Shown piece after piece: positions 11,541-61,085 of a stretch of 64,000 nucleotides of DNA (position 1 is its first letter; each line of letters starts with the position of its first letter). The stretch is taken from assembly GCF_018350175.1 (NCBI RefSeq), contig NC_058368.1, positions 85,996,001 to 86,060,000 on the forward strand, in the 5' to 3' direction. Under the pieces are notes generated by a model. The model did no database searches. It was not told where the DNA came from and saw only the letters and a program-made list of their open reading frames with translations. The position numbers and the translations under genes were made by a program. The stretch is from Felis catus. Its lineage: Eukaryota.

Positions 11541-11543
<3 letters not shown>
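9550..11543 (+). mobile_element. Carnivore L1 5' portion (5'UTR plus ORF1 N-terminus), 3'-truncated
   Basis: Starts near caagatggc (YY1-type L1 start motif, ~9561). ORF 11269-11481 MTKGSNSPQKIEQEEMAAKSL.. is an ORF1 N-terminus. The 5'UTR is homologous to the reverse complement of ~29850-31095. Confidence 0.85.
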
Positions 11544-11614
<71 letters not shown>

Positions 11615-11667
11615 ATATATATATGTATATATATGTATGCATATATATGTGTATATATATGTATGTA

Positions 11668-11698
<31 letters not shown>

Positions 11699-11716
11699 GT
11701 TTGTATGTATGTATAT
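11544..11716. repeat. Compound (TA)n/(TG)n microsatellite, probably the decayed tail of the adjacent minus-strand L1
   Basis: Alternating ta/tg/tatg runs directly abutting the L1 3' end. Confidence 0.9.
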
Positions 11717-14700: not shown

Positions 14701-15870
14701 ATCTTTATTATTTCTCTTCTTCTGCTGGGGTTGGGGTGTCTTTGCTGTTCTGCTTCTATTTACTTTAGGTGTGCTGTTAGATTTTGTATTTGGGGTTTTT
14801 CTTGCTTCTTGAGATAGGCCTGGATTGCAATGTATTTTCCTCTCAAGACTGCCTTCGCTGCATCCCAAAGTATTTGGATTGTTGTATTTTCATCTTCATT
14901 TGTTTCTGTATACTTTCAATTTCTTCTCTAATTGTCTGGTTGACCCATTCATTCTTTAGTAGGGTGTTCTTTAACCTCCATGCTTTTGGAGGTTTTCCAG
15001 ACTTTTTCCTGTGGTTGATTTCAAGTTTCATAGCATTGTGGTCTGAAAGTGTGCATGATATGATCTCAATTCTTGTATACTTGTGAAGGGCTATTTTGTG
15101 ACCCAGTATGTGATCTATCTTGGAGAATGTTCCATGTGCACTTGAGAAGAAAGTATATTCTGTTGCTTTGGGATGCAGAGTTCTAAATATATCTGTCCAG
15201 TCCATCTGATCCAATGTATCAGTTAGGGCCCTTGTTTCTTTATTGATCCTGTGTCTACATGATCTATCTACTGTTGTAAGTGGGGTATTAAAGTCCCCTG
15301 CCAGGGGCACCTGGATGGCTCAGTCAGTTAAGCATCTGACTTTGGCTCAAGTCATGATCTCACAGTTTGTGGGTTCGAGACCCGCATTGGGATCTGTGCT
15401 GCCAGCTCAGAGCCTGGAGCCTGCTTCGGATTCTGTGTCTCCCTGCCTCTCTGCCCACCCCCCCACCCCCCCACCCCTGCTCACACTCTGTCTCTCTCTG
15501 TCTCTCAAAAATAAATAAATGTAAAAAAAAGTCCCCTGCCATTACCACATTCTTATAAATAAGGTTGCTTATGTTTGTGATGAATTGTTTTATCTATTTG
15601 GGGGCTCCTGTATTCAGTGCATAGACATTTATAATTGTTAGCTCCTCCTGATGGATAGAACCTATAATTATTATATAATGCCCTTCTTCATCTCTTGTTA
15701 CAGCCTTTAATAGTCTAGTTTGTCTGATATAAGTATGGCTACCCCAGCTTTCTTTTGACTTCCAGTAGCATGATAGATCATTCTCCATCCCCTAACTTTC
15801 AATCTGAGGGTGTCCTCAGGCCTAAAATGAGTCTCTTGTAGACAGCAAATAGATGGGTCTTCTTCTTCTT

Positions 15871-15901
<31 letters not shown>

Positions 15902-17733
15902 ATCAATTCTGATACCCTATGCTTTTTGTTTGGAGCATTTAGTCAATTTACATTGAGTGTTATTATTGAAAGATATGTGTTTATAGTCATTGTCATGTAT
16001 GTAGGCTTCATGCTTGTAGTGATGTCTCTGGTAGTTTGTGGTCCTTGCAACATTTCTCTCACAGAGTTCCCCTTAGGATCTCTTGTAGGGCTGGTTTAGT
16101 GGTGATAAATTCCTTCAATTTTTGGTCTTTTTGGGAAAACAATTATCTCTCCTTCTATTCTGAGTGGCATGCTTTCTGGACAAAGGATTCTTGGCTGCAT
16201 ATTTTTTTCTGTTCATCACATTGAAGAGTTCCTGCCATTCATTTCTGGCTTGCCAAATTGCAGTAGATAGGTCTTCTACTACCCTTATGTTCTACCTTTG
16301 GAAGTTAGAGCCAGTTTTTCCCTAGATGCTTTCAGAATTCTCTCTTTATCCTTGTATTGGCCAGTTTCATTATGATATGTCATGCAGAAGATCGATTCAA
16401 ATTACGTCTGAAGGGAGTTCTCTGTGCCTCTTGGATTTCAATGCCTGTTTCCTTCCACAGATCAAAGAAGTTCTCAGATATGATTTTTTCAAGTACACCT
16501 TCAGCCCCTTTCTCTCTCTCTTCTTCTTCTGATATTCCTAAGATATGGATATTGTTCCATTTGATTGCGTCACTTAGTTCTCTAATTCTCCCCTCATACT
16601 CCTGGATTTTTAATCTCTCTTTTTCTCAGCTTCCTCTTTTTCCATAGTTTTATCTTTCAATTCACCTCTTCTCTCCTCTGTCTCTTCAATCCATGCTATG
16701 ACTGCCTCCATTTTATTTTGCACCTTATTTATAGCATTTTTTAACTCCTCATGACTATTAGTTAGTCTGTTGATCTCTGTAGCAATAGATTCTCTGCTGT
16801 TCTCTGTGCTTTTTTCAAGCCCAGCAATTAATTTTATGACGATTATTCTAAATTCTTGTTCCGCTGTAATGCTTAAGTCGGTTTTGATCCATGCGTTAGT
16901 TGTCACTACTTTCTGGAGTTTCTTTTGAGGAGAATTCTTCTGTTTCATCATTTGAGTAGACTCTGTGGTGGCTCCAAACTTGAGGGCACTTCCCCTATGC
17001 TGTGTTGAGTAACTTGTGTTGGTGGGTGGGGCCGTAGTCTGCCCCCATGTCTGCCCCCAGTCACCTCTGGGGTCACAGTCAGAGTTGTGTGTACCTTATC
17101 TTCCCCTCTCCCAGAGGCAGGGCTCACTGTGGAGTGGTGTGGCCCTTGTCGGGGCTACTTGCACACTTCCAGGTTTGTGGGTGCAGTTTCAATGGGATCT
17201 GGCCAAGGGCATATTAGACAGGGTGGATCCGCAAGGAGCACAGGGACTAGAGGGGCAGGCTTAGCTTGTTTTGCCATCAGTGGTCCCCTGCAGGAGGGTC
17301 CCTGCAGCACCAGGAGGGAGGCAGACCTGTCAGAGGGATGGATCCACAGAAGCACAACATTGGATGTTTGTGCAGTGCAGGCAAGTTCAGTGATGGGAAT
17401 GTGTTCCCTTTGGAATTTCATCTGGGGGATGGGAGAGGGAGATGGCACTTGCCAGTGCCTTTGTTCCCCTGCTGAGTGAGCTCCATCTTCTGTTGCTCAA
17501 CAACTCTCCCTTCTGGCATCCACTCACCCTCCCTGCTCTCTGAGAGCAGAGCTGTTGACTTTTCACATTCCAGATGTTAAGTTCAGCTGGCTGCCAGAAC
17601 TCACAGAGTCCAGCCCCTCTGCTTTTGCAAGCCAGACCCTGGGGGCTCTGCCTTGCCTGGCATGCTGCCCTCCACTGCCCTGGCTCCCTCCAGCCCATCC
17701 TTGTAGCACACACCGCCTCTCCGCCCTTCCTCT
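11717..17733 (-). mobile_element. Near full-length felid L1 with inactivated ORF1 and ORF2
   Basis: 3' end tatgaaatttattgtc. ORF2 pieces: 12083-12391 C-terminus, 12385-13023, 13466-13771 with the RT motif LFADDMI, 14843-15310 with endonuclease motifs GDFNTPL and SDH. ORF1 starts at 16951 (MMKQKNSPQKK..). The 5'UTR runs to ~17733 and lacks about the first 150 nt seen at 33213. Many frameshifts. Confidence 0.95.
15304..15527 (+). mobile_element. CAN-SINE inserted in the L1 endonuclease region
   Basis: 14-bp TSD aaagtcccctgcca at 15290-15303 and 15528-15541. Confidence 0.95.
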
Positions 17734-19390
17734 ATCATTGTAGATTTGATTTGTATTTCCCCGATGATGAGTGATGTTGAGCAACTGTGTCTTCTATGGT
17801 AAAAAAGTGTCTATTCATATCCTCTGCACATTTTTCATTAAATTATTACTTTTGGGGTGTTGAGTTTTCTAAGTTCATTATATTTTGGATACTTACTCTT
17901 TATCAGATATGCCATTTACAAATATATTCTCCCATTCCATAGGCTGCCTTTTAGTCTTTTGGGTTTTTTTTTTGCTGTGCAGGAACTTTTTATTTTGATG
18001 AATTCTTATACTTTATTTTTGTCTTTGTTTCTTTTGCCTCAGGAGATATATCTAGTAAGAAGTTGCTGAGGTCAATGTCAAAGAGGCTATTGCCTGTGTT
18101 CTCCTCTAGGGTTTTTATAGTTTCCTGTCTCACACTTAGGTCTTTCATACATTCTGAATTTATTTTTGTGTATGATATAAGACAATCGTCCATTTTCACT
18201 CTTTTGCATGTTGCTTTCCAGCACCTTCCCATCGGGTATTCTTTCCTGCATTGTTGAAGACTGATTTACCATATAGTTGTGAGTTCAGTTCTGAGTTTTT
18301 TATTCTGTTTGATTGATATATGTGTCTATTTTTGTGCCAACAGCATACCGCCTTGATCATTACTGCTTCATAATAGGTCTGGAGATGTGATGCCTCTATC
18401 TTTGCTTTGCTTTTCAAGTTTGCCTTGTGTGTTTGGTCTTCTGTGGCTCCATACATATTTTAGGATTATTTGCTGTAGCTCTGTGAAAAATGCTGGTGGT
18501 AATCTGAATTGGATTGCATTAAATGTGTAGACTGCTTTGGGTAGTATAGACATTTTAACAATGTTTGTTCTTCCAGTCCATAAGCCTGGAATGTCTTTAC
18601 ATTTTTATTGTGCATCATCCTCAATTTCTTTTATCAGTGTTTTATAGTTTGCAGAGTACAGATCTTTAACACTTTAACTAGGTGAATTATTAGATATCTT
18701 ATGTGTTTGTTTCAATTGTAAGTGGGATCAATTCCTTGATTTCTCTTTCTGCTGCCTCATTGTTGTATAGGAATACAAGATTTATGTATGTCGATTTTGT
18801 ATCCTGGGTCTTTACTAAACTAGTGTGTAACTTCTAGCAATGTTTTGGTGAGTCCTTCTGCTTTCTATATAGGGTATCGTGTCATGTGCAAATAGGAAAC
18901 ATTTCACTTCTTTCTTGCAGGTTTAGATGTCTTTTATTCCTTTGTCTTTTCTCATTGCTGTGGTACTATGTTAAATAAAGTGATGACAGTAAGCATCCCT
19001 GTCTTATTCCTGACTACAGAGGAAAATCTCTGTTTTTCCCCATTGAGGGTGATATTAGCTGTGAGTATTTTGCATATTGCCTTTATTGTGATGAATAATG
19101 CTAACCATACTTTTTTGTCATGAATGGATCTTGCTTTTGTCAAATGTTTTTTTCTGCATCTATTGAAATGATCATACGGTTCTTATCATTTCTTTTATTA
19201 AAGTGGTGTATCATGTTGATTGATTTGTGAGTATTGAACCACCCTTGCAAACCAGAATAAATACCACTTGATTGTTAGTTCATGCCTCAGAACTACCTGC
19301 TATTTTGGGGGATTTACATTAGAAATTCAACAGAACTTGAGTCTGAGATATAATGGAGCCTGTTGGTGGGATCTCAGGGCAAAATTATCC
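17125..19390. repeat. Left arm (donor) of a ~2.27 kb near-identical inverted duplication
   Basis: Reverse complement of 33959-36224. The ORF track shows identical translations with a constant coordinate sum of 53350 (e.g. 17990..18232 vs 35118..35360; 18368..18553 vs 34797..34982). Confidence 0.97.
17734..19275 (-). mobile_element. Older L1 ORF2 fragment
   Basis: Decayed ORF2 peptides ([41 protein letters not shown]). Confidence 0.9.
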
Positions 19391-19649
19391 TTAGGGAACC
19401 ACAAACACCATGGGTGATCACCTGATGGTAGATACACTGAGATGGCTGTGAGTTTAATCAGTGAAGTAATCAGTCCCTAACAGCCCATAAGACCCTGATA
19501 ATAAAGTGACATAAAATACCCTGTGCTTCCTAAACAGTGTGTAGGAGGTGTAGAAGCATACTTCTCCAGGAGACGCAAAAACAGTGAACACTTAATGACG
19601 CCATGGCATTCAGTGTATTCTAAAGGATGAGGAAGGGAAAGGATACCCA

Positions 19650-20636
19650 TACCAGAAATAAACCCAGGAATATATGGTTAACTAATGTACAACAAAGAAA
19701 CCAAGAATATACTATGGTGAAAGTATAGTCTATTCAGTGATTGTACATCCTATGCATTTTCAGTCAGAAAACTGTGTGGCCACCTGCAAACAAAAAATAA
19801 AATTGAACCATTATCTTGAACCATACACAAAAATTATTTTAAAAGTGTTTGAAGACAAATGTAAGAATAGACACCATAAAACTTCTGGAAGAAACAGGTG
19901 GTTAGCTTCTTGACACAGATATTTATAATAGTTATATAAATCTTACACAAAGACAAAAAGAAGAGAAGTAAAGATAAGTGGGGTACATTAAACTAAAAAT
20001 ATGCACACCAAAGAACCATCAACAAAATTAAAAGTCAAACTACTGAATAAGAAAGGTACTTGTAAATCATATTTATCCTTAGGGAAGCTAGTATTCAAAA
20101 CAGATAAAGAACACACAATTTCAATGGCATAAAAATTGGTTACAAAATGGACAGAAGACATGAATAGAGTTTGTTTTCCAAGGAAGACATATAGATGGGT
20201 AAAAAGTTAAAGAAAGAAAGAAAACAAAAGATGTACAACGTCATAAATAATCAGGAAAAGCAAACAAAAACCACAATGAGATATGACCTTACACATTAAG
20301 AATATCTATTTTCAAAAAGACAGGGAATAACGTGTTGGTGAGGATGGGGAAAAATGGAAATCGTTGTTTTTTATTGGGGAGAATGAAAATTGGTGCAGCC
20401 AGTACAGAAAACAATATGGAGTTTTCCTCTTGAAACTAAAAATGGAACTACCATACATCCATAAATTCCACTGCTGGGTATTTATCCAAAGATTTCAGAA
20501 ACACTGCTTTTAAAGATATATGCATCTTTATGTTCATTGATCATTCCTGTGTTCATTGCAGCAGTATTGACAATGGCTAAGAAGCTAAGACAGGGAAACA
20601 ACTTATGTATCCTAAGAACCCATTAATGGTTGAGTG

Positions 20637-20672
<36 letters not shown>

Positions 20673-21180
20673 TTACTCATTATATATTGCACAGACTATA
20701 TTTAAATGCACATATAATAAATATGCTTGTACACATATATATGTATAAATATACATATACATGCATGTCTATTTATTAAAACAATAATATAACATAGTAA
20801 ATATAAATGCACAAAATATAGATATTATAAATATAAATATACATATATATATAATATAGATATAATAACTATATATTTATATATGTATATCATATTTAAA
20901 TATTTAAATAAAAGTGAAATATAATTACAAATTTATATTAAATACATTTATACAGGTAATCAAATCTTGCCATTTGTTACAACATAGATTAGACCTTGAA
21001 GGTATTATTTTATGTGAAATATATTAGAAAGAGAAAAACAAATACAAAATGATCTCTCCTATGTATGGAAGATAAAACAAAACACAACAAGAAAACAAGC
21101 TCATAGACACAGAAAACAGATTGGTGTTTGCCAAAGTGAGGGGGTGAGGATTGAGAGAAAGGAGGAAAACAAATACTTTT
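19650..21180 (+). mobile_element. Old L1 3' fragment (ORF2 end and 3'UTR) with an internal AT-rich expansion (~20640-20950)
   Basis: L1 3' motifs aaggaagacatatagatgg, aaaaccacaatgagat, aaatcttgccatttgttacaaca. Confidence 0.8.
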
Positions 21181-21462
21181 TAGAAAAACAGAAAGAAATC
21201 AGGGGAAATAAAAATAAAGCATTCAAAATCATATCACAAGTGTGTAGAAACAAAATATCTGATAAAAGTGTCCAGTCAACTTAAAATAAAAAGGATAACA
21301 TATTTATTAAATTGCACTGGAATGCTTAATAGCATTTAGAAGAAAATATACTCCTACTTACAAGAATTGCATGCAATTAATTACATACATGTTTAAAATC
21401 ATTTTTTTAATAAATCTAAATAATATCACTGATGTTTCTATGTATTTGTTTAAAAAATTCTT

Positions 21463-21738
21463 GGGTGCCTGGGTGGCTGAGTTGGTTAAGCATCCAAATT
21501 TTGATTTTGGCTCAGCTCATGATGTCATAATTTTTGAGCTGGAGCCCCATGCAGGGCTCTGCACTGACAGTTCAAAGCCTGCTTAGGATTCTCTCCATTC
21601 TCTCTCTCTACCACTCCCCCTTTCACTCTGTGTGTCTCTCTCTTTTTCAAAAACAAAACAAAACAGAACAAAAAAAAAAAAAACAAAGATATAAACAAAC
21701 AACCACAACAACAACAAAAAAACCACACACAAAAAAAT
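21463..21738 (+). mobile_element. CAN-SINE, diverged
   Basis: gggtgcctgggtggctgagttggttaagcatcca head, CT tract, long A/CA-rich tail. Confidence 0.9.
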
Positions 21739-21963
21739 ATTTAAAACATTGTTTTCAATCTATTTGAATTTTTTATTGAACAATACAGGTATTTAAATAG
21801 ATAATCACATTGGCATATTTGAAATATATATATTTCTTATATATTGTTCACAAAACAGGACCCTTGTTTCAACAGAAATTTTAGAGAACTTTGATCATTG
21901 TTTTGTGTCTGACAAAACACGTCTTGACATGTCTTAGGAAGGAAAAGTTCCGATGTCTATGTT

Positions 21964-22022
21964 TTGTTTTGTTTTGTTTTTTTATTTTATATATGAAATT
22001 TATTGTCAAATTGGTTTCCATA
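21964..22022 (-). mobile_element. Extremely 5'-truncated felid L1 3' tip (59 bp)
   Basis: tatgaaatttattgtcaaattggtttccata matches the L1 3' ends at ~11742 and ~58077; 7-bp TSD ctatgtt at 21957-21963 and 22023-22029. Confidence 0.8.
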
Positions 22023-22362
22023 CTATGTTAAAACTAAATAGTCACTTCCTTTTTTGACTCTCAGTTATAGGAAAGGAATATAATCATACTTTCTATTAAA
22101 TCTTTTAATTTCAAACTTTAAAGTGGGTGCCTTCAAATAAGCAAGGGATATGCACATTCACTAAGCAAACAGCACAAGAAAAATAAATAAGTGTTTATTG
22201 CAATTCATCAAGTTTTCAGAGGAGCTCATCATATGATTTTTGAGCTGTGAATGGTGTGAGTCATATTAATTAATCTCAGACACATTTTGGAAATTGATTT
22301 TGGTTATGTATTTTCCAGACATCACTGGGCCAGAATTTCTGAAGAGTCTTAAAGTCTCTCAC

Positions 22363-22556
22363 TTTTTTTCTTTTTTTAATGTTAATTTATTTCTTTTGAG
22401 ACAGAAGAGAGCTAAAGAGAGGAAGGGACAGACAGAGAGGGAGAGAGAGAATCCCAAGCAGGTTCCATGCTCAGTGCACAGCCTGATGTGGGGTTTTATC
22501 TCACAACTGAGAGATCATGACCTGAAACAATATCAAGTAGTTGGATGCACCCCCAG
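22363..22556 (-). mobile_element. CAN-SINE, diverged
   Basis: T tail, gagagagagaatcccaagcagg..gagatcatgacctga, ending gcacccc. Confidence 0.85.
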
Positions 22557-23829
22557 ATGCCTCTGTCACTCTTTTTAATATAATATTTTCTGCTTAAATT
22601 CTACCGATTTTTTTTCTATTAAAAAAATGAATTTACTTTAGTTAAGAACCTTAACTAATTACATTTCAAACCCCAAATTAATTCAACTGGAAAACCTTGG
22701 TAGTAAAGAGTAATGCCTAATGAACCTTTGGCCATTGATACCAAACAGTGAATGTCTTTTTTTTTTTCAAAATTTGAAAATGAAGTTATGTGATATGAAG
22801 GAAAATTAAGCAAACTCTTCCTTTTTTAAAAGATTAATCATACACGTTCTTTTGATAAAAAATTTCCCATCATAGTTACACCATTTCAAAATAAAGCTTT
22901 TAAACAGTAAATAGTCAAGAAATCTCTAAGGACTCACTTAGTTTTAGTATAAAAGCATCCATAATTACAGTATATAATCTAACATGCAGATCTTCTATTT
23001 GGGGGGAAAATACTTATATCTAATTCTAATATATCAGTCATTCATCACTGTGATGCTTTGGATATTACAGGGCTTTGTACATGTTAATTCTAGCTTCCTT
23101 ATTTACACCCACTCTTATATAATAAAGAGTATAGAAGACTTACTCCGTAAATAGTGATGACTGTTCATTCATAGTGCCCAGGTGTAGAACTAGCCTGCAG
23201 GTAATGGGAAGACTTTTGTAAGGTAGTCATTAAACAGGTATCTCTATTGAAAACCGTGCTACAGAGAGGTTAATAATAAAGCAAAGCACCCAAATCTCAT
23301 TCAGTAGAATTATAAGAATATTAAATGTATAATGAAATGCTGATAACAGAAATCATCTTATGAAATGGAGTTAGTGGCTTTTGGGGTTGTGAAATGAGTG
23401 TTTTGAAAGACAACTGGGAAGTGGCTCAGACTGACTAATCTGCACTAAACAGTATATAACTCCCATCAATCCTTTTAGAAAAAGGCTCTCATTATTCCAT
23501 AGTCTATTCTTCATTTTCCTGATCACAATTATCCCGATCATGTAGACCTGTTGTAAATGACTTTCTTAGATTCATCTAGTTACTTCCAGAGTCCTTCTCA
23601 TAAAATATATAAACTTGTATTTCCTCCTTACTGGTGAGAGAATGTCTAATTCTATACAGAGTTCTTTGTCCAATCTCCATACCTATCACTTCCCCTGAAA
23701 ATAAGGGAACAGAAGAATCATTTTTTCACCAGGCAAGGGTAAATATATATATATAAAGGGTAAATATATACAAAGGATAAATATATATGTACATATATAT
23801 ATACACATATATATACACACATATATATT

Positions 23830-23860
<31 letters not shown>

Positions 23861-24261
23861 GTATATATATATTAGATTTCAAAGAAACCTGGGAACGTGA
23901 TAACACTTTCTGTTATTTTTCCTATTTTAGCCATTTGGGAAGAGATGTTAAGTATATATGAATTATTGTAATGTGTGATACCATCATGTTGGATTGTTTC
24001 CATTATCATTTCAATATATTAATAAAATCTTACTACCCACAGGCTAAGGGAAAATATTTGTTCTTTCTATTTATTGAAAAATTACCACAAAGAAAACAAA
24101 TAAAAGAATATAAAATTATTTTGTCAAATCTCAATTATTTCAATTTTCTAGATTAATATAATCCCTGTCTTCATTCTTGGAATGTCATTGCTCCTAATGA
24201 GTGTAAAAGGTGAAAAAGATGGAATTTTAAGGCAGCAGGATTAAAGAGAACTTTGTCAAAC

Positions 24262-25190
24262 TTATATAGAGCAGATCCCCTGAATCACTCTTCTCAGGGC
24301 TCCCATCACCTCCTTGTTTCTCAGGATATAAATGATGGGGTCAAGCATTGGGGTCAGAATAATGTAGAAGACACCAGAACCTTGGCTTCTGTGGGAGATC
24401 TCAGCGATCTTGGGCATAGGTAAATGTAAGCAAAGGGTGCAGAGTAGAAAGTCACCACAATGAGGTGTGTGCTGCAGGTTGAATAGGGCTTCTTCCTTCC
24501 TTCTGTTGAGTGCATGTGGCAGATAGCATGGAAAACTCGGCCACAGGAACATGCAATGCCGATGAAAAGAAATGCAATCAAGAGTGTGGTGCTCACAAAC
24601 ACTGTGTACTCATAGATCATAGGTGTCCATGCAGGCCAGAGTCAACATGGCTAGGACATCACAGAAGAAATGGTTGATGAACCCGGATCAACCATAAGGG
24701 ATATGGAGGGCATATACAGTGTGGGCACAGGAGTTGATTGAGCCCATTATCCAAGATCCTGTTATTATCAACACACACACTTTTTTGCTCATACGAATGG
24801 GATAATGAAGAGGAAAGCAAATAGTCACATAGCGATCATGGGACATGGAGGCCAATAGTAACCCATCTGCATCTGCTAAAGTCAAAAAGAAGCTCTGTAT
24901 CCCACACCCAATGAAGGAGATAGACTTGTTTCCAAAGACATAATTGGATGCCATCTGGGGAATGATGGTGGAGATGAAGTTCAAGTCCATGAGGGAGAGG
25001 TGACTAAGTAGAAAATAGATGGATGTGTGGAGATGGGTGTCCAGGAGGATGAGGAGAATCATGGACAGGTTGCCAAAAAAAGCCATTAGGAAAATGACAA
25101 TAATGAGAATGAAAAGAAACAACCCAATTCTTGATGGGGGAAAAACCCCAATAAAAGGAAGCCTGTTAATGTTTGGCTGTTATTTTCCAT
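24262..25190 (-). pseudogene. Olfactory receptor pseudogene, OR2L subfamily-like
   Basis: ATG at 25190 (MENNSQTLTGFLLLGFFP); GNLSMILLILLDTHLHTSIYFLLSHLSLMD; MSHDRYVTICFPLHYPIRMS; INHFFCDV; EGRKKPYSTCSTHL; TPMLDPIIYILRNKEVMGAL; TAA at 24262-24264. Lesions: -1 frameshift ~25135, TGA at 24688-24690, +1 frameshift ~24620, -1 frameshift ~24375. Closely resembles the human OR2L2/OR2L3 protein pattern as recalled, not searched. Confidence 0.95.
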
Positions 25191-26112
25191 TTTCTACTCA
25201 TTGGTATTCTTGAAGAAAGAGAAAAACTCATATGTGAAAAATAAAGAAATGTGAGTTTTTACATTTTATTCAAATTATTTTAGTCTAATTCTGAAGTTTT
25301 TATGGAATACCTTGTTCCTTAAATAAATAATCAACATTTCTTACTTTGAGAAAGAAGTTATATGATGTTTCACAAAGTCACAAGGTAAGGTGGTAAGCAT
25401 ATACATTCCAAGTTTTCTGTAAAGAATCCATGAAATAATAAAAGGTAAATATTAATACTCACCTGAGTGTGATATGAGTAATTCTATGCCCTTCATAAAT
25501 GTACACATACAAAATATTAAATTTTAATTTAATGTAAGCATAATTCTTATTGCCAAGACTGAGCACAAGTTGACTAATAATTCAAATGAATATAGGTTTG
25601 GCTCATGTGTATTTTTAATATATCATTTAGACTAGGACTTTATTAAAATGAAAGATCTCCCCATCAGGAATTCATTCATAACCACTAGATGGTTATTTTA
25701 ATTTTGACAAAGTAGACAATTTTTGATTGCCTAAAGAATCTTCAAATGGATTGCTTTTTACCCATTAATTCTGCTTCTAGTCACTAAAACAGTAATATGT
25801 AGGCTATGTATAGACTATGTAAAAAAACTCTAACCTGTATTGATTACATTGACTCCTCCTGACAACTTTGACACATAAGCATTGGATTAATCCTACTGCA
25901 CAACATTGACAATATTTGTCTGAAGTGACATACTGTATGAGATAAAGATAACATTTTGCTCCTGGGCCATTTCTATAAATGGAAGGGAAGACTCAGATGT
26001 AACCTTTATTTTCCATTTCACTAACATCCTGGACAGGTATAAGAAATTATGCTAAGTCGAAACAAAATTCTGAGGCTGGTATCATCACCCACAATTGTAA
26101 AATAAGCATCAT

Positions 26113-26330
26113 GGGGTGCCTGGGCGGCTCAGTCAGTTAAGAGTCCAACTTCAACTCAGGTCATGATCTAAAGGTCTGTGAGTTTGAGCCCTGTGTCAGG
26201 CTTTATGCTGACAGCTCAGAGTCTGGAGCCTGCTTCAGATTCTGTCTCTCCCTCTCTCTCTGATCCTCCCCTACTTGCTCTCTGTCTCTCTGTCAAAAAT
26301 AAATAAATAAAAACATTAAAATTTTTAAAA
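26113..26330 (+). mobile_element. CAN-SINE
   Basis: ggggtgcctgggcggctcagtcagttaag head, CT tract, A tail. Confidence 0.92.
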
Positions 26331-26954
26331 TAAATGACATTCACAGAACTTGAGTAACTTATCATGAGCTAAAAAGATACAGTTTATCCTGTACCTTATG
26401 AAAAGCAAGGAATCACAAAGAATTGCTCACGTTAGCCACCCCAAACTTCCAGTAAAGTAGCTATTTAAACAAGAATTGTCTATGTCTACTAGGCAGTATA
26501 TGATGGCAAATGTCTCTAATAAATTATTTTGTGCTCAAATAAAATTGGTTTTGAGATTAAAGTCACACATTTTACATTTTCTCCTTAGAAACATGTTTCC
26601 TCTGTCCTCCTGCTCTTCCTGTATTCTCACTGGCTCCCTGCAACAACACAACAGCTCACACTTGGTCTCTACTAAATGGAAGAAGAGAGGCCTCACAATA
26701 TCATTTAGCAATAAATAATATCACAGGACTTTTAAATGAAGTGTAAGCCATAGTTTCTTTCAATCAAAAAGTGTCACAGTCTAACAGCATGTTCATGAAA
26801 GAACACTCATGTTGTCTGTAAGTCAGGTTGCAGATACACATATTCTTTCAGTTGCTTTGCAAATTTGAAAGCGGCTGATATGTTGCATTTCTGTTACTCT
26901 CCTTGCATTAGTTTCTTTTTCCTATCCTTTTCTTCAGAAGTTTGAAATTAAATT

Positions 26955-29900
26955 GGATTCTATGTACTTTTAGATTTCTTCTTTAACTTATTATTTAGCC
27001 CACTCATGCTCTAGAAGTATGTTATTTAGTCTCCAAGTATTTGTTAGCTTTCCAGATATTTGTCTTGTGGTTGATTTTGAGTTTCACAGCATTTTGGTCT
27101 GGAAATATGCAAAGCATGATCTCAATTGTTTTGTTCTTTTTTTAGGGATGATTTGTGTCCCAGTGTGGGGTCTATTCTGGATAATATTCCATGTGCACTC
27201 AAGAAGAATGTGCATTCTGTGGCTTTAGAATGAAATATTCTGAATGTATATGTTATGTCCATCTGGGTCCAGATTGTCATTCAAATCTGTTGTTCCCTTG
27301 TTTATTTTCTCTTATATGATTTGTCCATTGCTGTAATGACTCTTATGGGAAAGTGTCTCAATGAGCAACAGCTGTGTGCTGGCCCACCCCTGTATGTTTG
27401 CATGACAATGCTGCTGCTGATGACTGGAGACTGCAACTGGGTGCCAGCAGCCCCAGAAAATTTTGTGCAATCGTGTAGCAGCAGTGTTTCAGGGATTCAG
27501 CAAGTGTTGTAGTGTTGAAGTATCCTATTATTATGGTACTATTGTCAATGAATTTCTGTATGTTAGTGATTAATTGATTTACATATTTGGGTTCAATCAT
27601 GTTTGAAGCAAAAATGTTTAAAATTGTTAGATCTTGGATGGCTAAATCCCTAAATTCTGATATAATTCCATTCTTCATCTCATGTAACAGTCTTTACTTT
27701 AAAATCTAGATTTTCTGATATAAGTATGATTAATTAGGCTTTCTTTTGGCGACCATTAGCATGATAGCTGGTTCTCCACCCCCTTACTTTCACTCTGAAC
27801 GTGTTTTAGGTCTAAAATGAGTCTCTTGTAAACAGCATATAGATGTATTTTATTTCTTATCCATTCTGGTACCCTGTGTCTTTTGATTGAAGCCTTTACC
27901 TATTGACATTTAGAGTGAGTACTGAAAAATATTAATTTGTTACCATTGTGTTGCCTGTAGATTTAGAGTTTCTGATGGTGTTCTCTGATCCTTTCTTGTC
28001 TTTGTTGCTTTTGACCTTTTTTTGTTGTGTTCTGTCTTTTCTCCCCTCATAGAGTCCCTCTTAAAATGTCTTGCAGGGCTGGTTTAGTGGTCACACACTC
28101 TTTTCATTTTTTTAGTCTAGGAAACTTATTTTAATTTATTTATTTTATTTTTTTAAATTTGCATCCAAATTAGTTAGCATATAATGCAACAATGATTTCA
28201 GGAGTAGATTCCTTAGTGCCCCTTACCCATTTAGTCCATGCCCCCTCCCACAACCCCTCCAGTAACCCTCAGTTTGTTCTCCATATTTATGAGTCTCTTC
28301 TGTTTTGTCCCCCTCCATGTTTTTATATTATTTTTGTTTCCTTTTTCTTATGTTCATCTGGTTTTCTCTTAAAGTCCTCATATGAGTGAAGTCATATGAT
28401 TTCTGTCTTTCTCTGACTGACTAATTTCACTTAGGATAATACCCTCCAGTTCCATCCACATAGTTGCAAATGGCAAGATTTCATTCTTTTTGATTGCTGA
28501 GTAATAGTCCATTGTATATAAATGCCACATCTCCTTTATGCATTGATCCATCAGTGGACATTTGGGCTCTCTCCATACTTTGGCTATTGTTGATAGTGCT
28601 GCTATAAACATGAGGTGCATGTGTCAGTCTGGGAAACATTTTATCTTTCCTTCTATTTTGTATGATAATCTTGCTATATAAAAAATTATTGCTGAATATT
28701 TTTTTTTGATTCAGCACATTAATATATCCTGCAATTCCTTTCTGGCATACCAACGTTTCTGTGGATATGCCTACTGTGAACCTGATCTGTCTGCCCTTGT
28801 AGGTGAAGGAGTTTTCTCCCCTTGCTGCTTTCATGATTATTTCCTTGCCTGGATATTTTGTGAATTTGACTATAATATGCCTTGTTGATGGTCATTTTTT
28901 GTTGAATCTAATGGGAGCTCTCTGTGCTTCCTGGATTTTAATGTCTGTGTTTTTCCCTAGGTTAGGAAAGTTTTCCAATTTGATATGTTCACATAAACCT
29001 TCTACCCCTTTTGCTCTCTCTTCATCTTCTGGGACAACTGTGATTCAGATATTATTCCTTTTTAATAAGTTACTGACTTCTCTAAGTCTTGTATCATGCT
29101 CTTTTAACTTTGTTTCACTCTTTTTTGTTCTGCTTCATTATTCTCCCTAAATTTGTCTTCTATAGCACTGATTCACTGATCTCCTTCGTTCATCCTCATT
29201 GCTGTAGAAAGCATTTAAGATTGAATCTAGTTATAGCATTTTTAATTTTGTCCTGACTAGATTTTAGTTGTCCCCCCCCCAAAGAAAGGGATGCTATGCT
29301 TTTATCAACCCCAGCTAGTATTCTGATTTTCATGATTCTAAATTCTAGTTCAGACATCTTGCTTGTATCTGTGTTAAGTCCCTGACTGTCATGCTTTTCT
29401 GTTCTTTCTTGTGGGGTGAATTCTTTCATTTCATCATTTTGAAGGAAGAAAAAGAATTAATAAAATAAAAAACATTCAAAAATTAAAATGAACACAAAAA
29501 AATCAGATAAATGATGCTAGTTCCTAGGTGTTTTTTGGTCTGGTTGTTGAAAGAAGTTTTATAGAGTAGAGAGGAAAAGAAAAGAAAAGAAAAAAAAAGG
29601 AAAACTTTTTAAAATTAAAAAAAAAAGAATTAAAAAAGATGAAAGTAAAACAGAATTTTAAAATGTACAAAAAAAGTAAAAAAAAACTAGAAAAAGTAAA
29701 GAATTTTTAATAAAAATGGAAAATAAAAATACGCTTTTCTCTTTCTGTATTCAAGAATAGGAAAAGAAAAGAAACAGGAAAAAAAATTGAACAGATGGAC
29801 CAGCGAACAGAATGACATACGATTGAGATTTCATCCAGTTTCCCCTAGAAATCAAACTATGAAGCACATTATAGTCTATAACTAAACAGGCAAAGAGGTT

Positions 29901-31095
29901 TGTGGTATTCTTCTAGAGCACAGTTTGCCCATTTAGATGGGGCTTTGTGTAACCGGTCCATTCTCCACTATATGGAGCTGCTTAGTTTATTGGGTGGATC
30001 ATTGTGGCCTGTGCAGGGCTTGTATTTGCATTCATGGGAGGGGTAAAAATGGTGTCACCCATCTACCAAGTCTCTAGTATCACAACTCTGTGTTCTCACC
30101 GACTGACAAGCACCCCTACTTTGTCTCTGGCTTCCATCACTCTCTGCCTATACATTTCTGTGACCAAGTTGTCAGCCTCCCAGGTGACACCTCTGTCCTG
30201 AGTTTTATATCAGATAGAGCTGTTTCCAAACCTGTCATTTCTGAGAGTGTTGCAGCTTTGACCCTCTCAGACCCTCAGGGGGCGTGTCTTGCCAAGCAAG
30301 GGCCAGGTGCATGCCCACCCCCTGGTACATTCACGTGACCACTCTGCTGCAGTTGCCCAGAGACTGCAGCCAGGTGCCAGCCCACCGCAGAAAATTTTGT
30401 GTGGTTTTATAGCAGCAGTGTTTCAGGGATTATGGTAAATCACAACACCCATCTGGTGCCACGCTTCACCCTTAATGCCCTTGTTCCAACACCAACAAAC
30501 GTGACTGTTTCCTCGCATCTGCTGGGACCTTTGCCTTTGGGGAGGCTGCACAACCTTTACCAAATGTCATCTGAACAGGGAAACAGCCTCTCCCCATGTG
30601 GCCTGAAGACCTATCAGACCTCACTGTCTGCACCTAAGGATTCACTCTTCCCACCTGATCTCTGTCAAGTATCAAGCTGCAGAGTTTCAGACTCTGTGCT
30701 CCTCTGTTTATAGTGCCTTAATGGAATTTAAACCCTCTCCTTTCTCCTTTCTTGTTCAGCCTCTTGCAGTCATTTTCTACTTTTTTTTTTTTTTTTTGGT
30801 TCAGTGCACTTTTTATCTACAGCTGCTTTCAGAGGAGTGTTTTTCTGTACTCTCCTCCCTGTCTCCATCCTCTCTCCCCAAGCAAAAACAGCTCCCTACC
30901 CTCATGACCGTTCTACCCCAGTTCACCTCTCTGTGCTGTGTACCTGCAGAGTTCTGTGATTCAAGTTGTGCAGATCGTTGTGTTAATCCTCATATCACTT
31001 TGCTAGTTGTGCGAGATGGTTTGGTGTTGATCTAGCTGCATTTCAGAGATGAGAGAGACAAAAAATGAAAGTTCCATGTTTCCCTGCCCTCTTGC
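26955..31095 (-). mobile_element. Older carnivore L1 5' half (5'UTR, ORF1, endonuclease region)
   Basis: Endonuclease remnant (TIIIGYFNT) ~27000-27900; ORF1 remnants 28000-29430 (MKEFTPQERTE..NTDTSKMSELEFRI); A-rich spacer; 5'UTR homologous to 9560-10800. Confidence 0.85.
28126..28625 (-). mobile_element. 5'-truncated L1 3' end nested in ORF1 of the older L1
   Basis: ORF2 C-terminus 28378-28620 (FIAALSTIAKVWREPKCP..); TSD agtct(a/g)ggaaac at 28114-28125 and 28626-28637. Confidence 0.9.
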
Positions 31096-31104
31096 CCTCT
31101 CCCA

Positions 31105-33212
31105 GCTTTCTTTTTTCTTTTTAATCAGTCTGGCTAAGGGTTTGTTATTCTTTCAAAAAACCAGCTTCTGGTTTCATTGAACTATTCTACTGTTGTTTTG
31201 TTTTTGTTTTTGTTTTTGTTTTTTTTATTTTGGTATCATTGAATCCTACTCTAATCTTTATTATTCCCTGTCTTCTGCTGGTTTGGGGGTTTCTTTGCTG
31301 TTTTTCTCCAGCTATTTAAAGTGTAATGTTAGGGTGTGCATTTGAGACTTCTCTTCTTTCATTAGGGATGCTTGGATTGCTATATACTTCCCTCTTATGA
31401 CCAGCTTTGTTACATCCCAGAGGTTTTAAGCTGTCATGTTTTCATTTTCATTGACTTCCATGTACTTTACAATTTCTTCTTTACTTTCTTGGTTAACCCA
31501 TTCATTCTTTACTAGAATTTTCTTTAACCACCAAGTATACATGATCTTACCATTTTTTTTATTATTATTGTGGTTGATATCAAGTTTCATAGTGTTGTGT
31601 TCTGAAAATATGCAAGGTAAGATCTTGATCTTTTTGTAATTGTTTAGGGTTGTTTTGTATCTCAGTTTGTGATCTATTCTGGAGAATTTTCCATGTGCAT
31701 TTGAGAAGAATGTCTATTCTGATGCTTTAGGATAAAATTTTCTGAATATATATGTTACGCCCATCCTGGTCCAGTGTGTCATCAAAGCCATTGTTTCCTT
31801 GTTTGTTTTCTGCTTAGACTATTTGTCCATTGTTGGAAGTGGGGTGTTGAAGTCCCCTGCTCTTATGGTATCAATTTTTATGATTTTCTTTATGTTTGTA
31901 ATTAATTGCCTTATATATGTGGGTTCTTCCACCTTCGGTTATGATCTTCTTGGTGAATAGACCCTTTAAAACTGATATAATGCTCTTCTTCCATATTGTT
32001 AAGGTCTTTGTTTTAAAATCTAGTATCTTATAAGGATGGCTACTCCAACTTTCTTTTGGCAACCATTAGCATGATAGAGCATTCTGCATCCCCTTAGTTT
32101 CAAGCTGAAGGTGTCTTTAGGTCTTAAGTGGGTCTGTTGTAAAGGGCATATACATGGAACTTGTTTTCTTATCCATGCTGTTACCATGTATATTTTGTTT
32201 GGAACATTTAGTCCATTCACATTTAGAGTGAGTAATGAAAGATATGAATTTGTTGCCATTGTGTTGACTGTAGAGTTGGAGATTTTAGTGATGCTGTTCT
32301 TTCTGTTCTTTCTGAGATGTTATTCTCTGGCCACATTTAGTCTTTTTTGTATTTAATCGTCCACACAATTTGGGTGTTATCTTTCAAAAATAGCAGAAGT
32401 TTAGGTGGTTCAAATGTATAAACATCTAGTAATAAAGTGATTATACATTATCAAGGTTTTATTTTACATTATTTTGTAAATACCAGATAAAAATAATAGG
32501 TATTATTACCACAGAGGATATGTCATTCACTGTAGTTTGTGATAGTTTGAAACCATATGTAATAATTGTTTTGTTTTGTTTTGTTTCATCTTTTCTCCAT
32601 TCAAAGAATCCCCCTTAGATGTCTTGCAGGGCTGGCTTAGTGGTCACAACATCCTTTAGTTTTTGTTTGTCTGGGGTAACTCTTTATCTATTTTCCTCTT
32701 TTGAATGAAACCATTCCTGGATTAATAATTATTGGCTGAATACTTTTTTTCTTTTAAAGCACATTGATTATATCTATCCTATATTTCTGGCCTGCCAAGT
32801 TTCTGTAGATAAGTCTGCTGAGAACCTGATCTGAGTTCCCTTATAGATTGAGGATTTATTTTTTCCCTCTCTTGGTTTTTCCTTAATTCTTTCTTTACCT
32901 GTGTGTTTTGTGAATTTGAATATGATATGCCTTGTTAATGGTGTTTTTTGACTCTACTGAGAGTTCTCTGTACTTCTTGGATTTTGATGTCTGTGTTCTT
33001 CCCCAGGTTAGGGAAGTTTTCCACTGTAATTTTTTCACATAAACCTTCTGCCCTTTTTTCTCTTCATCTTCTGGGACTCCTATGATTCAGATGTTATTCT
33101 TTTTTAATAAGTTACTGACTTCTCTAAGTCTTGTATGGTGTTATTTTAACTTTGTATCCCTCTTTTTTTCTGCTTCATTATTCTCCTTAAGTTTGTCTTC
33201 TATATTGCTGAT
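31105..33212 (-). mobile_element. Older carnivore L1 fragment (ORF2 N-terminus plus ORF1 C-terminal part)
   Basis: ORF 32020-32259 MATNSYLSLLTLNVNGLNVP.. is the ORF2 start; the ORF1 part is homologous to 28040-29170. Confidence 0.88.
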
Positions 33213-33959
33213 TTGGAGAAGATGGCGGTGTAGGAGGATGCTGGGCTCACCTCGTCCTGCTGATTGATTAGATTCCACTCACAGCAGCCTACATAACCCA
33301 GAAAACTGCCAGAAGATTAGCAGAACAGACTCTCTGGAATCAAGTGCATACAAGAAGCCCATGGAAGAGGGTAGGAAGGGCAGAGAGGCAGCGCATGCTA
33401 CATCAAGGGAGCTGGGGCAGTGCAGGGGCAACCCGCCAGACAAGGCAGAGCCCCCAAAGTCTGGCTTGCAAAAGCAGAGGGGCTAGATCCCCTGAGTTCT
33501 GACAGCCAGCGAGGCTTAACATGTGGAATGTTAAAAGTCAACAGCTCTGCTCTTGAAGAGTGGGAAGGGTGAGAGGACAGCAGGAGGGACAGTTGTTGAA
33601 ACCAGGAAGGACAGAGCTCAGTGGGGGAACAACAGCACTGGCAAGCACCATATCCCTTTCCTATCTCTCAACCAAAATTCCAAAGGGAGCCAGTTCCCAT
33701 CACCAAACTTGCTTGCACCGTGCAAACACCCAGCCCTGTGCTTCTATGGATCTATCCAACAGACAGAACTCCCTCCCTCCCAGTGCTGCAGGGCCCCTCC
33801 AGTAGGGGAACATCTATGGCAAAGCTAGCTAACCTTGCCCCTCCCACCCCTGTGAACCTTACAGATCCTCTCGGCTAATACTCCAGATCCCATTGAAGCA
33901 GCACCACAAGCCTGGCAGTGTGCAAGTAGCCCAGACAGGGGCTACACCACTCCACAGTG
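33213..33959 (+). mobile_element. Felid L1 5'UTR, first part (interrupted by the inverted duplication)
   Basis: Begins ggagaagatggcgg (YY1-type motif); homologous to the reverse complement of 17125-17733; stops abruptly at ..ccactccacagtg. Confidence 0.9.
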
Positions 33960-36224
33960 GATGATTTTGCCCTGAGATCCCACCAACAGGCTCCATTATA
34001 TCTCAGACTCAAGTTTTGTTGAATTTCTAATGTAAATCCCCCAAAATAGCAGGTAGTTCTGAGGCATGAACTAACAATCAAGTGGTATTTATTCTGGTTT
34101 GCAAGGGTGGTTCAATACTCACAAATCAATCAACATGATACACCACTTTAATAAAAGAAATGATAAGAACCGTATGATCATTTCAATAGATGCAGAAAAA
34201 AACATTTGACAAAAGCAAGATCCATTCATGACAAAAAAAGTATGGTTAGCATTATTCATCACAATAAAGGCAATATGCAAAATACTCACAGCTAATATCA
34301 CCCTCAGTGGGGAAAAACAGAGATTTTCCTCTGTAGTCAGGAATAAGACAGGGATGCTTACTGTCATCACTTTATTTAACATAGTACCACAGCAATGAGA
34401 AAAGACAAAGGAATAAAAGACATCTAAACCTGCAAGAAAGAAGTGAAATGTTTCCTATTTGCACATGACACGATACCCTATATAGAAAGCAGAAGGACTC
34501 ACCAAAACATTGCTAGAAGTTACACACTAGTTTAGTAAAGACCCAGGATACAAAATCGACATACATAAATCTTGTATTCCTATACAACAATGAGGCAGCA
34601 GAAAGAGAAATCAAGGAATTGATCCCACTTACAATTGAAACAAACACATAAGATATCTAATAATTCACCTAGTTAAAGTGTTAAAGATCTGTACTCTGCA
34701 AACTATAAAACACTGATAAAAGAAATTGAGGATGATGCACAATAAAAATGTAAAGACATTCCAGGCTTATGGACTGGAAGAACAAACATTGTTAAAATGT
34801 CTATACTACCCAAAGCAGTCTACACATTTAATGCAATCCAATTCAGATTACCACCAGCATTTTTCACAGAGCTACAGCAAATAATCCTAAAATATGTATG
34901 GAGCCACAGAAGACCAAACACACAAGGCAAACTTGAAAAGCAAAGCAAAGATAGAGGCATCACATCTCCAGACCTATTATGAAGCAGTAATGATCAAGGC
35001 GGTATGCTGTTGGCACAAAAATAGACACATATATCAATCAAACAGAATAAAAAACTCAGAACTGAACTCACAACTATATGGTAAATCAGTCTTCAACAAT
35101 GCAGGAAAGAATACCCGATGGGAAGGTGCTGGAAAGCAACATGCAAAAGAGTGAAAATGGACGATTGTCTTATATCATACACAAAAATAAATTCAGAATG
35201 TATGAAAGACCTAAGTGTGAGACAGGAAACTATAAAAACCCTAGAGGAGAACACAGGCAATAGCCTCTTTGACATTGACCTCAGCAACTTCTTACTAGAT
35301 ATATCTCCTGAGGCAAAAGAAACAAAGACAAAAATAAAGTATAAGAATTCATCAAAATAAAAAGTTCCTGCACAGCAAAAAAAAAACCCAAAAGACTAAA
35401 AGGCAGCCTATGGAATGGGAGAATATATTTGTAAATGGCATATCTGATAAAGAGTAAGTATCCAAAATATAATGAACTTAGAAAACTCAACACCCCAAAA
35501 GTAATAATTTAATGAAAAATGTGCAGAGGATATGAATAGACACTTTTTTACCATAGAAGACACAGTTGCTCAACATCACTCATCATCGGGGAAATACAAA
35601 TCAAATCTACAATGATAGAGGAAGGGCGGAGAGGCGGTGTGTGCTACAAGGATGGGCTGGAGGGAGCCAGGGCAGTGGAGGGCAGCATGCCAGGCAAGGC
35701 AGAGCCCCCAGGGTCTGGCTTGCAAAAGCAGAGGGGCTGGACTCTGTGAGTTCTGGCAGCCAGCTGAACTTAACATCTGGAATGTGAAAAGTCAACAGCT
35801 CTGCTCTCAGAGAGCAGGGAGGGTGAGTGGATGCCAGAAGGGAGAGTTGTTGAGCAACAGAAGATGGAGCTCACTCAGCAGGGGAACAAAGGCACTGGCA
35901 AGTGCCATCTCCCTCTCCCATCCCCCAGATGAAATTCCAAAGGGAACACATTCCCATCACTGAACTTGCCTGCACTGCACAAACATCCAGTGTTGTGCTT
36001 CTGTGGATCCATCCCTCTGACAGGTCTGCCTCCCTCCTGGTGCTGCAGGGACCCTCCTGCAGGGGACCACTGATGGCAAAACAAGCTAAGCCTGCCCCTC
36101 TAGTCCCTGTGCTCCTTGCGGATCCACCCTGTCTAATATGCCCTTGGCCAGATCCCATTGAAACTGCACCACAAACCTGGAAGTGTGCAAGTAGCCCCGA
36201 CAGGGGCCACACCACTCCACAGTG
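33959..36224. repeat. Right arm (derived copy) of the ~2.27 kb inverted duplication
   Basis: Reverse complement of 17125-19390. About seven differences seen by eye (33963, 34016, 1-bp indel ~34235, 34307, 35990, 1-bp indel ~36170, 36203). Confidence 0.97.
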
Positions 36225-36713
36225 AGCCCTGCCTCTGGGAGAGAGGAAGATAAGGTATACACCTGTCTGACTGTGGCCCCAGTGGTTGGCTGGGAGCAGA
36301 CATGGGGTCTGACTGCAGCCCTGCTCACCAACACAAGTTACTCCAGACAGCACAGGGGAAGGGCCCTGCAGTTTGGTGCTACCGCAGGGACTACCCAAAT
36401 GATGAAATGGAAGAATTCTCCTCAAAAGAAACACCAGAAAGTAGCGACAGCTAACAAATTGATCAAAACTGATTTAAGCAATATAATGGAACAAGAATTT
36501 AGAATAATAGTCATGAAATTAATTACTGTGCTTGAAAGAAGCATAGAAAACAGCAGAGAATCTATTGCTATAGAGATCAAGGCATTGACAAATAGTCAAA
36601 CAGGAACTAAAAATGCCATAAATGAGGTGCAAAATAAAATGGAGGCAGCCATAACAGGGATTGAAGAGACAGAGGAGAGAATAGGTGAATTAGAAAATAA
36701 AATTATGAAAAAA
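36225..36713 (+). mobile_element. Continuation of the L1 begun at 33213 (end of 5'UTR plus ORF1 N-terminus), 3'-truncated
   Basis: Resumes at the homologous position after ccactccacagtg. ORF1 MMKWKNSPQKKHQKVATANKL.. differs clearly from the 16951 copy. Confidence 0.88.
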
Positions 36714-37494
36714 GATACCTCCAAGAAAATCAACAGCAACAATGATTCTATGCCTTTTTTAATTGGAGACTTAATCTGATGCTTTGTTTTGTCTGCCTTG
36801 CTTGGTTGGTTGTCGTTTTGTTTTGTATTCACTTGGGAATGTCCACTGACACTTAGACAACGTAACTTAAGTTACTAAAAGCTCAAGATAGATAAGCCAA
36901 TGTTGGGGAAGAACTTTTAAAAATGTCTTTATATATTTTCATAGGTGTGTTAAGGTCAAGTCAGTAGTTAAAGAAACATATTTATTTAGTTTGTTCCAAT
37001 ATTATTGCATCCCTAAAATTTTATGGAGCATACATTGTATATATTGTTCAGTAAGTTCACAGTAATGTTGTATCTGCACATATTACATATTATTTTATTT
37101 CACAATTTTGATTATCATGGACAAATAATTAATAATTAAATGGAATGTGGTTAGTTTAATAAAAATATATATAAAAACTCTTAAAATATCACAAATGTGA
37201 AAGCTATCTTTAATTTACTTTAGGTATGACATATTTTCCAATTTTTCCATTCTGTTTGAAATAAGACATTAAACTATTAAAACTTTTCATTAATTAAACT
37301 AAATAATGCAAATTATGATATTGCTAATTTTAATGGAATAATATTAAAAAATGTTTAACAATGCAGTTTCATTGCAGATTATCTTAAATGTTCTTCTGTT
37401 TTTCCTGGCATCCAGAAATTACAGCAATCACAATTTCTATTTGGAAAAATACAACAATGGTCAAGTTTTAAAAATTTATCAGGTTTTTAATTTA

Positions 37495-45726: not shown

Positions 45727-46145
45727 TATATATATATATATGATATATATTATATATATAAGATATATATTATAAGATATATATATAATAGATAATATAT
45801 AATAGATAATATAATATAATATAATATAATATATATTATATTATATAATATATAATATATATTTATATATATTATATAAATATATTATATATATAAATAA
45901 ATATATATAAAAATATATATAAATATATAAATATAAATATAAATAAATATAAATATAAATATAAATATAAATATAAATATATTATATATAATATATAATT
46001 ATATAATATAATATATAATAGATAATATATAATATCTTATATATAATATAATATTATATATAATATATATTATATATAATATTATATAATATATATATAA
46101 AACCACTATATACCATTATATATATATATATGTATATATATATAT
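45727..46145. repeat. Long, almost pure A/T low-complexity tract
   Basis: About 400 bp of ta, ataat and ataaat units. Confidence 0.95.
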
Positions 46146-60834: not shown

Positions 60835-61056
60835 GGGGCGCCTGGGTGGCGCAGTCGGTTAAGCGTCCGACTTCAGCCAGGTCACGATCTCGCGGTCCGT
60901 GAGTTCGAGCCCCGCGTCAGGCTCTGGGCTGATGGCTCGGAGCCTGGAGCCTGTTTCCGATTCTGTGTCTCCCTCTCTCTCTGCCCCTCCCCCATTCATG
61001 CTCTGTCTCTCTCTGTCCCAAAAATAAATAAACGTTGAAAAAAAAAATTTTTAAAA

Positions 61057-61085
<29 letters not shown>
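60835..61085 (+). mobile_element. Young felid-type CAN-SINE
   Basis: Long poly-A; 16-bp TSD aaatttccctcaggta at 60819-60834 and 61086-61101; absent from the paralogous site ~18420. Confidence 0.96.

Follow-up and report, generated by a model that had tools for sequence, protein, structure and literature searches.

In L1 recombination-mediated inversion (L1-RMI), L1 elements in opposite orientation span the breakpoints and become chimeric, and the event is diagnosed by TSDs that do not match; the human cases have a mean size of 14.3 kb, according to the excerpted account (Lee et al. 2008, PMC2603318). Eight L1-mediated human inversions have been reported with a median similarity of 97.1%, none of which is given, in the portion of that source considered here, as having added complexity at both breakpoints (PMC9675761). 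Rearrangements of the DUP-TRP/INV-DUP type have been described at PLP1 and MECP2, their first junction (Jct1) being attributed, in the extract of the report used, to homologous or homeologous BIR and their second (Jct2) to MMBIR or NHEJ (PMC4352052), and one-ended invasion is covered, in part at least, by a review (PMC4888836). Human structural variant catalogues, as far as their excerpts go, contain dupINV/INVdup layouts of the form a c' b' c d or a c b c' d, and inverted duplications are there the commonest inversion class (277 of 733), with a median of 284 bp (PMC5338099, PMC12350158); breakpoint homology was present in just 8.8% of inverted duplications (PMC12350158).

The locus analysed here lies in a stretch of 64,000 bp from Felis catus, hereafter the window, which is AT-rich (36% GC), contains no N and carries many L1 and SINE copies. 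Self-BLAST paired 16635-19390 with 36715-33959 on the minus strand at 97.1% over 2759 columns, and global alignment of 33960-36243 with the reverse complement of 17106-19390 revealed 7 differences in 2284 bp. The near-perfect inverted 2.27 kb copy described in an earlier sequence-only reading is thus upheld; the pairwise alignment that it proposed, once run, also shows the claimed fall in identity, to 401 of 474 columns (84.6%) past 36243. The copied DNA is a dead L1 with about 115 bp of flank, and the 2.27 kb segment occurs in two copies only, with no part triplicated. The features of the locus, in which X and Y are two L1s of opposite orientation, are the following.

9658-11547, plus strand: L1 D, the 5' half (5'UTR and ORF1 start) of an older L1 apparently split by X
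11536-11547, minus strand: 3' copy of the 12-bp TSD of X, identical to 33201-33212
11548-17105, minus strand: left L1 A, 3' part, ending in the TSD of X
17106-19390, minus strand: left arm of the copy, from self-BLAST and alignment, its flank continuous in the paralog at 60-63 kb
17125-17731, in the left arm: Y5, a 5'-truncated L1 5'UTR
17735 to about 19275, in the left arm: O, an old L1 ORF2 fragment, then about 115 bp of flank
17125-33959, no strand: inverted segment of about 16.8 kb, relative to the state before X was split, from the split TSD and the opposite D and C halves; limits approximate, the crossover lying anywhere within the 1.1 kb common to both L1s
24300-25190 (approximate), minus strand: olfactory receptor pseudogene in the inverted segment (Pfam 7tm_4, E 1.5e-15)
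31114-33212, minus strand: C, the 3' half of the older L1 (rest of ORF1, ORF2 start)
33201-33212, plus strand: 5' copy of the 12-bp TSD of X
33213-33959, plus strand: X5, the 5' end of L1 X, from the first bases of the family to the break, aligning from the 5' end of the family member L001
33959-33960, no strand: non-homologous junction, 1-nt microhomology, mismatch at 33963
33960-36243, plus strand: right arm, matching the left arm at 2277 of 2284 positions in the global alignment
36209-36243, plus strand: 35-bp tract within which the homologous junction falls (X5 and Y5 have 16 bp of it in common, A and B 19 bp)
36244-36715, plus strand: B3, the end of a 5'UTR and the first 105 ORF1 codons, then cut off
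60102-64000, no strand: old segmental paralog of 17735-20368 and 23324-23480, 82-91% identical, without L1 Y, used as outgroup

L1 A holds the end of the 5'UTR, ORF1, ORF2, the 3'UTR, an A-rich tail and (CA)n/(TA)n; a SINE is inserted into it at 15304-15530, and its ORF2 pieces match Pfam RVT_1 and Exo_endo_phos. D aligns to an independent L1, E (in the region of 29168-30310 and 30415-31011), and ends at the ORF1 position of E where C starts. E is itself interrupted by a 3' piece of a younger L1 (28125-28625), 90% identical to 62291-62782. X5 and Y5 are identical in 480 of 614 columns. L1 Y lacks its first ~160 bases and is joined straight to the old ORF2 (17731-17735 and 35615-35619), a join that is not in the paralog. 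This L1 5'UTR family carries a long open antisense frame (35871-36473, minus, 200 codons; 17009-17479, plus, 156 codons). Among proteins predicted from public contigs, 142 or more contain it; it may reflect base composition only, or might be an ORF0-like frame. Elsewhere in the window, 45727-46145 is a degenerate, self-complementary (TA)n tract of ~420 bp, and an old repeat has two copies, 36816-37479 and 56828-57496, which are 63% identical; at this identity, and in the wrong orientation, they were dropped as candidates for the flank of the paralog.

The TSD of X reveals an inversion, probably older, beneath the copy. Directly behind the A-rich tail and (TA)n of the L1 that ends near 11550, the minus strand repeats the 12 bases that precede the L1 start at 33213. 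Within the window the motif is present once more, at 54257, which makes three occurrences; the two copies flanking X (33201-33212 and 11536-11547) are identical, and D and C agree mutually where E differs, at 3 of the 12 TSD positions. D (plus strand, to 11547) and C (minus strand, from 33212) fit end to end on E with an overlap of exactly 12 bases, a fit unaffected by the 4 or 5 of the 12 TSD bases that are also readable as (TA)n; D is the farther of the two from E (235 of 316 columns identical, against 269 of 317 for C). The split TSD and the D and C halves on E show that L1 X was originally one element inside D-C, with its ends at 33213 and 11548. The DNA between the two L1s (~17 kb) is accordingly inverted, with one end of the inversion inside X, and both L1s are chimeras produced by the inversion. 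A (minus strand) and X5/B3 (plus strand) are elements of the same class, in opposite orientation at both breakpoints; the TSD copies of X now stand on differing, oppositely oriented elements, and the TSD of Y is gone with its 3' end. It had been proposed that the original L1 resumes at 36225, which is not borne out: since both L1s are chimeric, the one resuming there may differ from the one that breaks off at 33959, with 36225-36715 possibly being part of the other. An interpretation of X5 and C as a twin-primed element was rejected, B3 and C being from different ORF1 subfamilies.

The date of the inversion and its crossover point can be approached only by inference. The crossover load test with a distant outgroup in the window gave 54:34 on the 5' side, and 16:35 and 23:16 on the 3' side, from a poor alignment; CpG retention carried no information on the point. 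With L001 as DNA outgroup the loads were 53 for X5 and 43 for Y5, and 32 for A3 and 35 for B3; a further candidate outgroup, L002, was dropped, being without a DNA match to the window. With an amino-acid consensus built from 120 relatives the loads were 19:12 and 12:6, biased by a query composed of Y5 and B3 (Fisher P 0.08 against a downstream crossover, with the same bias), and the per-relative correlation was -0.10 (P 0.57) in the 32 of the 120 that cover both sides. These loads are flat or conflict with one another and do not place the crossover. At 36715|36716 the rest of the L1 of B3, and of the old ORF2 hosting it, is absent; this cutoff could stem from an independent deletion, or it could be where the old inversion has its other end, a non-homologous one. 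The olfactory receptor pseudogene, which has frameshifts and stops, is the only gene in the inverted segment; it and the paralog at 60102-64000 are markers of an old receptor-cluster unit that has been duplicated. The unit at 17735-25190 and its paralog now have the same orientation, so that they would have been opposite before the inversion, which is feasible in receptor clusters; a second inversion is a possible alternative.

The seven differences between the arms are at 33963, 34016, 34233, 34307, 35990, ~36172 and 36203. That at 34233 is an extra A within a run and that at ~36172 an extra C, carried by the left arm at position 17181; the five others are substitutions, every one a transition. 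Four lie no more than 348 bp from the left end of the right arm and three no more than 254 bp from its right end. Between them 34308-35989 shows zero differences, this largest gap of 1683 bp having P = 0.0007 for seven uniform sites, and the arms, identical over the middle 1.68 kb, are 1.1-1.2% apart at both ends. The sequence-only reading saw a cluster of changes by the non-homologous junction; this is confirmed, but three more beside the homologous junction had been omitted. The 60-63 kb paralog, which runs through 19390/19391 with 341 of 400 columns identical beyond, does agree with the left arm at 33963, 34016 and 34307, as had been noticed, and 34233 cannot be polarised with it. Near the homologous junction, it is the left arm that has the non-family state at two of three sites (~36172 and 36203), 35990 being ambiguous. 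The original argument for the right arm as the derived copy was therefore weak, since the left arm carries derived changes too; the left-to-right direction itself is favoured by the relatives described below.

The nucleotide shared at the left junction is G (33959 = 19390); the microhomology, put earlier at 1-2 nt, is 1 nt and not 2, for the L1 family has A next. Neither TSD nor poly-A was found at the ends of the 2.27 kb, in agreement with what had been claimed. Positions 33959 and 36225 are neighbours in the family, as seen on L001, which indicates that the target site lost only 0-19 bp and is otherwise intact around the insert. Outside the window, the 33959 junction was spanned by 0 of 3 hits and matched by 0 of 8 exact look-ups, both weak and insensitive tests, and a protein-level search, insensitive because P0001 shares words with the query, gave no candidate for the empty allele (X5 joined to B3). 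The conserved 5'UTR motif had 0 matches among metagenome contigs. Word shares of 0.63-0.74, obtained in 19 of 24 runs among those listed, cannot separate the models, as every one of them retains nearly all words.

The relatives are proteins predicted from public contigs in the non-coding frame across the right junction, 120 of them among the matches listed; being translations, they leave the synonymous sites 35990 and 36203 invisible. One orthologous cluster of three (P0001, P0122 and P0121) was found among the 120 listed. Both sides of 17105-17125 are A-type in P0001 and P0122, which also have the extra-C frame of the left arm; over 114 residues the left arm differs from P0001 at 3 and from P0122 at 2, and there is a frameshift at the motif besides. 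The left element is thus intact in a genome that is, by a rough estimate, ~1% or more distant. At 36198 (17151 in the left arm) both arms have a common state that is missing in X5, L001, P0001, P0122 and four other relatives; six of seven motif-bearing proteins have L at this position and only P0121 has R. As both arms are changed at 36198 and P0001/P0122 are ancestral, the arms appear to have been made alike after that split, and the intact left element in P0001/P0122, together with the absence there of the change common to both arms, favours copying from left to right, while the extra C at 17181 points in the opposite direction. P0121, present in two contigs, is identical to the left arm over 134 of 134 residues, the four A-type positions within 36244-36265 among them, and matches B3 at residues 2-23, the switch falling inside 10 bp (36266-36275); left-type sequence joined to B3 thus occurs outside this assembly. 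P0121 may represent a third allele with its switch point 22-32 bp farther on, and could be a converted arm or the other inversion arrangement. Three junction forms are thereby seen within 50 bp: A-type throughout, a switch at or before 36243, and a switch at 36266-36275.

We favour, with a probability of roughly 0.55, an old L1-L1 inversion and, later, a one-ended templated copy made into a break at 33959; the anatomy of the junctions is read directly, and from it we infer the repair pathway, the order of events and the template. In the older event, homology-directed exchange between the opposite L1s X (full length, with TSD) and Y (5'-truncated), now ~80% identical, would have inverted ~17 kb and left both L1s chimeric. 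In the younger, the right-hand L1 would have suffered a double-strand break at 33959|36225, and the right end of this break would have invaded an inverted copy of the same 5'UTR, primed from the 19-35 bp perfect tract. One-sided invasion is reportedly treated by Belmaaza and Chartrand (1994) and Richardson and Jasin (2000). Either the left element in cis or a homologous chromosome with the other arrangement may have served as template; the latter would give perfect homology beyond 36276 and so remove the difficulty of invading an 80% match. Synthesis would have copied 2.27 kb past the end of homology before end joining to the other end on 1 nt, and error-prone synthesis near this second junction may have left three substitutions and a homopolymer slip within 350 bp. 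The SDSA/BIR-like repair proposed in the sequence-only reading is supported as to junction anatomy (one homologous and one 1-nt junction) and left-to-right direction, but it missed the underlying inversion.

The inversion step is supported by the split TSD and the 12-bp overlap of D and C on E, and the templated copy into a break by the adjacency of 33959 and 36225 in the family. A younger date for the copy is suggested by the shared state at 36198 and by the count of 7 differences, where ~23 would be expected of arms 1% apart. P0121, which joins left-arm sequence to B3 in independent data, supports the two-event reading, as do rearrangements at inverted repeats with a like pair of junctions and point mutations near the second, in the portion of the report drawn upon (PMC4352052). 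Several observations count against it. The right arm is without the extra C found in the left arm, P0001, P0121 and P0122, so that a recent copy requires a 1-bp reversion or a sequencing error; 36203 (perhaps also 35990) looks derived in the left arm within 255 bp of the other junction, which would be chance under two events; an identity of 78-85% is unusual for invasion, against the median of 97.1% in L1-mediated human inversions (PMC9675761); P0121 requires one more event; and neither the 33959 junction nor the empty allele was found in other data, by searches that were insensitive. No function is proposed for the copied dead L1 and its flank.

A single old inversion with duplication at one end (INVdup), the arms of which were later homogenised, is the strongest competitor, although clearly less probable than two events. 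X would have broken at 33959|17124, its 3' end invading Y and copying 2.27 kb; the intermediate would have been cut as a half-crossover and the 5' end of X end-joined to the freed end. The right arm would then be the original position, and the likeness of the arms due to gene conversion or to a middle levelled by the assembly consensus. One event would thus cover the split TSD, both junctions and their coincidence at one L1 position; the derived changes adjoin the new junction of each arm (33963, 34016 and 34307 on the right, 17181 and 17146 on the left), ends 1.1-1.2% apart around an identical 1.68 kb are what old arms with a converted or collapsed core would show, the family state at ~36172 is kept in the right arm without reversion, and P0121 resembles a longer left-to-right conversion tract. 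The main obstacle is 36198, derived in both arms and ancestral in P0001/P0122, which demands micro-conversion or reversion at a site between two unconverted ones 31 bp apart; the DNA-outgroup load test, moreover, did not put the crossover at the motif (53:43; 32:35). If this old event is instead made recent, of the age of the 0.3% arm difference and with Y5+B3 as the ancestral right element, it agrees with everything inside the window and predicts a Y5-B3 join in the 1%-distant genome; P0001 and P0122 join Y5 to A-type sequence, which makes it very improbable unless they represent a deep haplotype carrying the derived allele.

The layout is also what an assembly of an inversion heterozygote would produce from the left breakpoint of one arrangement and the right breakpoint of the other, a join at 33959 showing one 2.27 kb stretch twice; we regard such an artefact as unlikely. 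P0121 could then be the other arrangement, a divergence of 0.3% between the arms is about that expected between alleles, and the look-ups and hits, weak as these tests were, did not recover the 33959 junction from other data. The window contains no N, however, and the join is gap-free with an overlap of just 1 nt. Overlaps of 1 nt are not normally joined by overlap or k-mer assembly. The five substitutions, all transitions, also speak against an artefact, as do the end of X5 at the exact resumption of B3 and the stretch 36244-36265, B-type here and A-type in P0121, both of which would have to be coincidence or mosaic consensus. L1-driven insertion of a transcript of the left element, by transduction or twin priming, would explain L1 sequence at both ends of the copy; with TSD and poly-A absent at both ends of the 2.27 kb, and a copy that takes in 1.65 kb upstream of the donor 5'UTR and stops at the homologous 5'UTR position, it is scarcely credible. 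The three junction forms within 50 bp suggest a further, rather speculative reading: the ~80% identical pair of L1 5'UTRs may be a recurrent breakpoint, the inversion polymorphic, and the duplication the result of a break beside the inversion breakpoint, repaired off the oppositely oriented homolog in a heterozygote. If true, this would be an example from nature, resolved at the sequence level, of a duplication allele arising from heterozygosity for an inversion, and of exchange that recurs at an identity far lower than is considered necessary.

The consequences for the animal are likely to be small, since the duplicated DNA is a dead L1 and no functional gene is affected. TSD forensics recovers here an inversion hidden beneath an apparent insertion, and calls of 'inverted duplication' at inverted L1 pairs should be read with the warning that they are open to misreading. 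If the three alleles are real, they offer a cheap way to ask if recombination between diverged L1 pairs is repeated, and if duplications at the breakpoints arise in inversion heterozygotes.

Compared with described systems, the inversion is, by the TSD test applied to this sequence, an L1 recombination-mediated inversion: it shares with L1-RMI, as set out in the excerpted report, opposite chimeric L1s, mismatched TSDs and a size near the human mean, and differs in that 2.27 kb is also duplicated, the L1s are 78-85% identical, the TSD of Y is lost and the crossover is unplaced (PMC2603318). The junctions resemble those of rearrangements of the DUP-TRP/INV-DUP type, where in the part of the report at hand one junction also lies in an inverted repeat, within a perfect tract that is short (24 bp in that report, 19-35 bp at this locus) and the other has 1-4 nt of microhomology with point changes nearby; unlike them, the present locus has no triplication, is on the kb scale and involves diverged L1 5'UTRs instead of low-copy repeats (PMC4352052). 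As in the dupINV/INVdup layouts of the catalogues, again from their excerpts, an inverted duplication abuts an inversion breakpoint, here with 2.27 kb and a homologous junction, in contrast to the inverted duplications recorded there (PMC5338099, PMC12350158). Drosophila inversions from staggered breaks likewise have an inverted duplication at one breakpoint, but those breakpoints are, in the extract available, mostly without inverted repeats, whereas here each of two L1s has its breakpoint at the same position (Ranz et al. 2007, PMC1885836). The event is of a known class, unusual in degree only.
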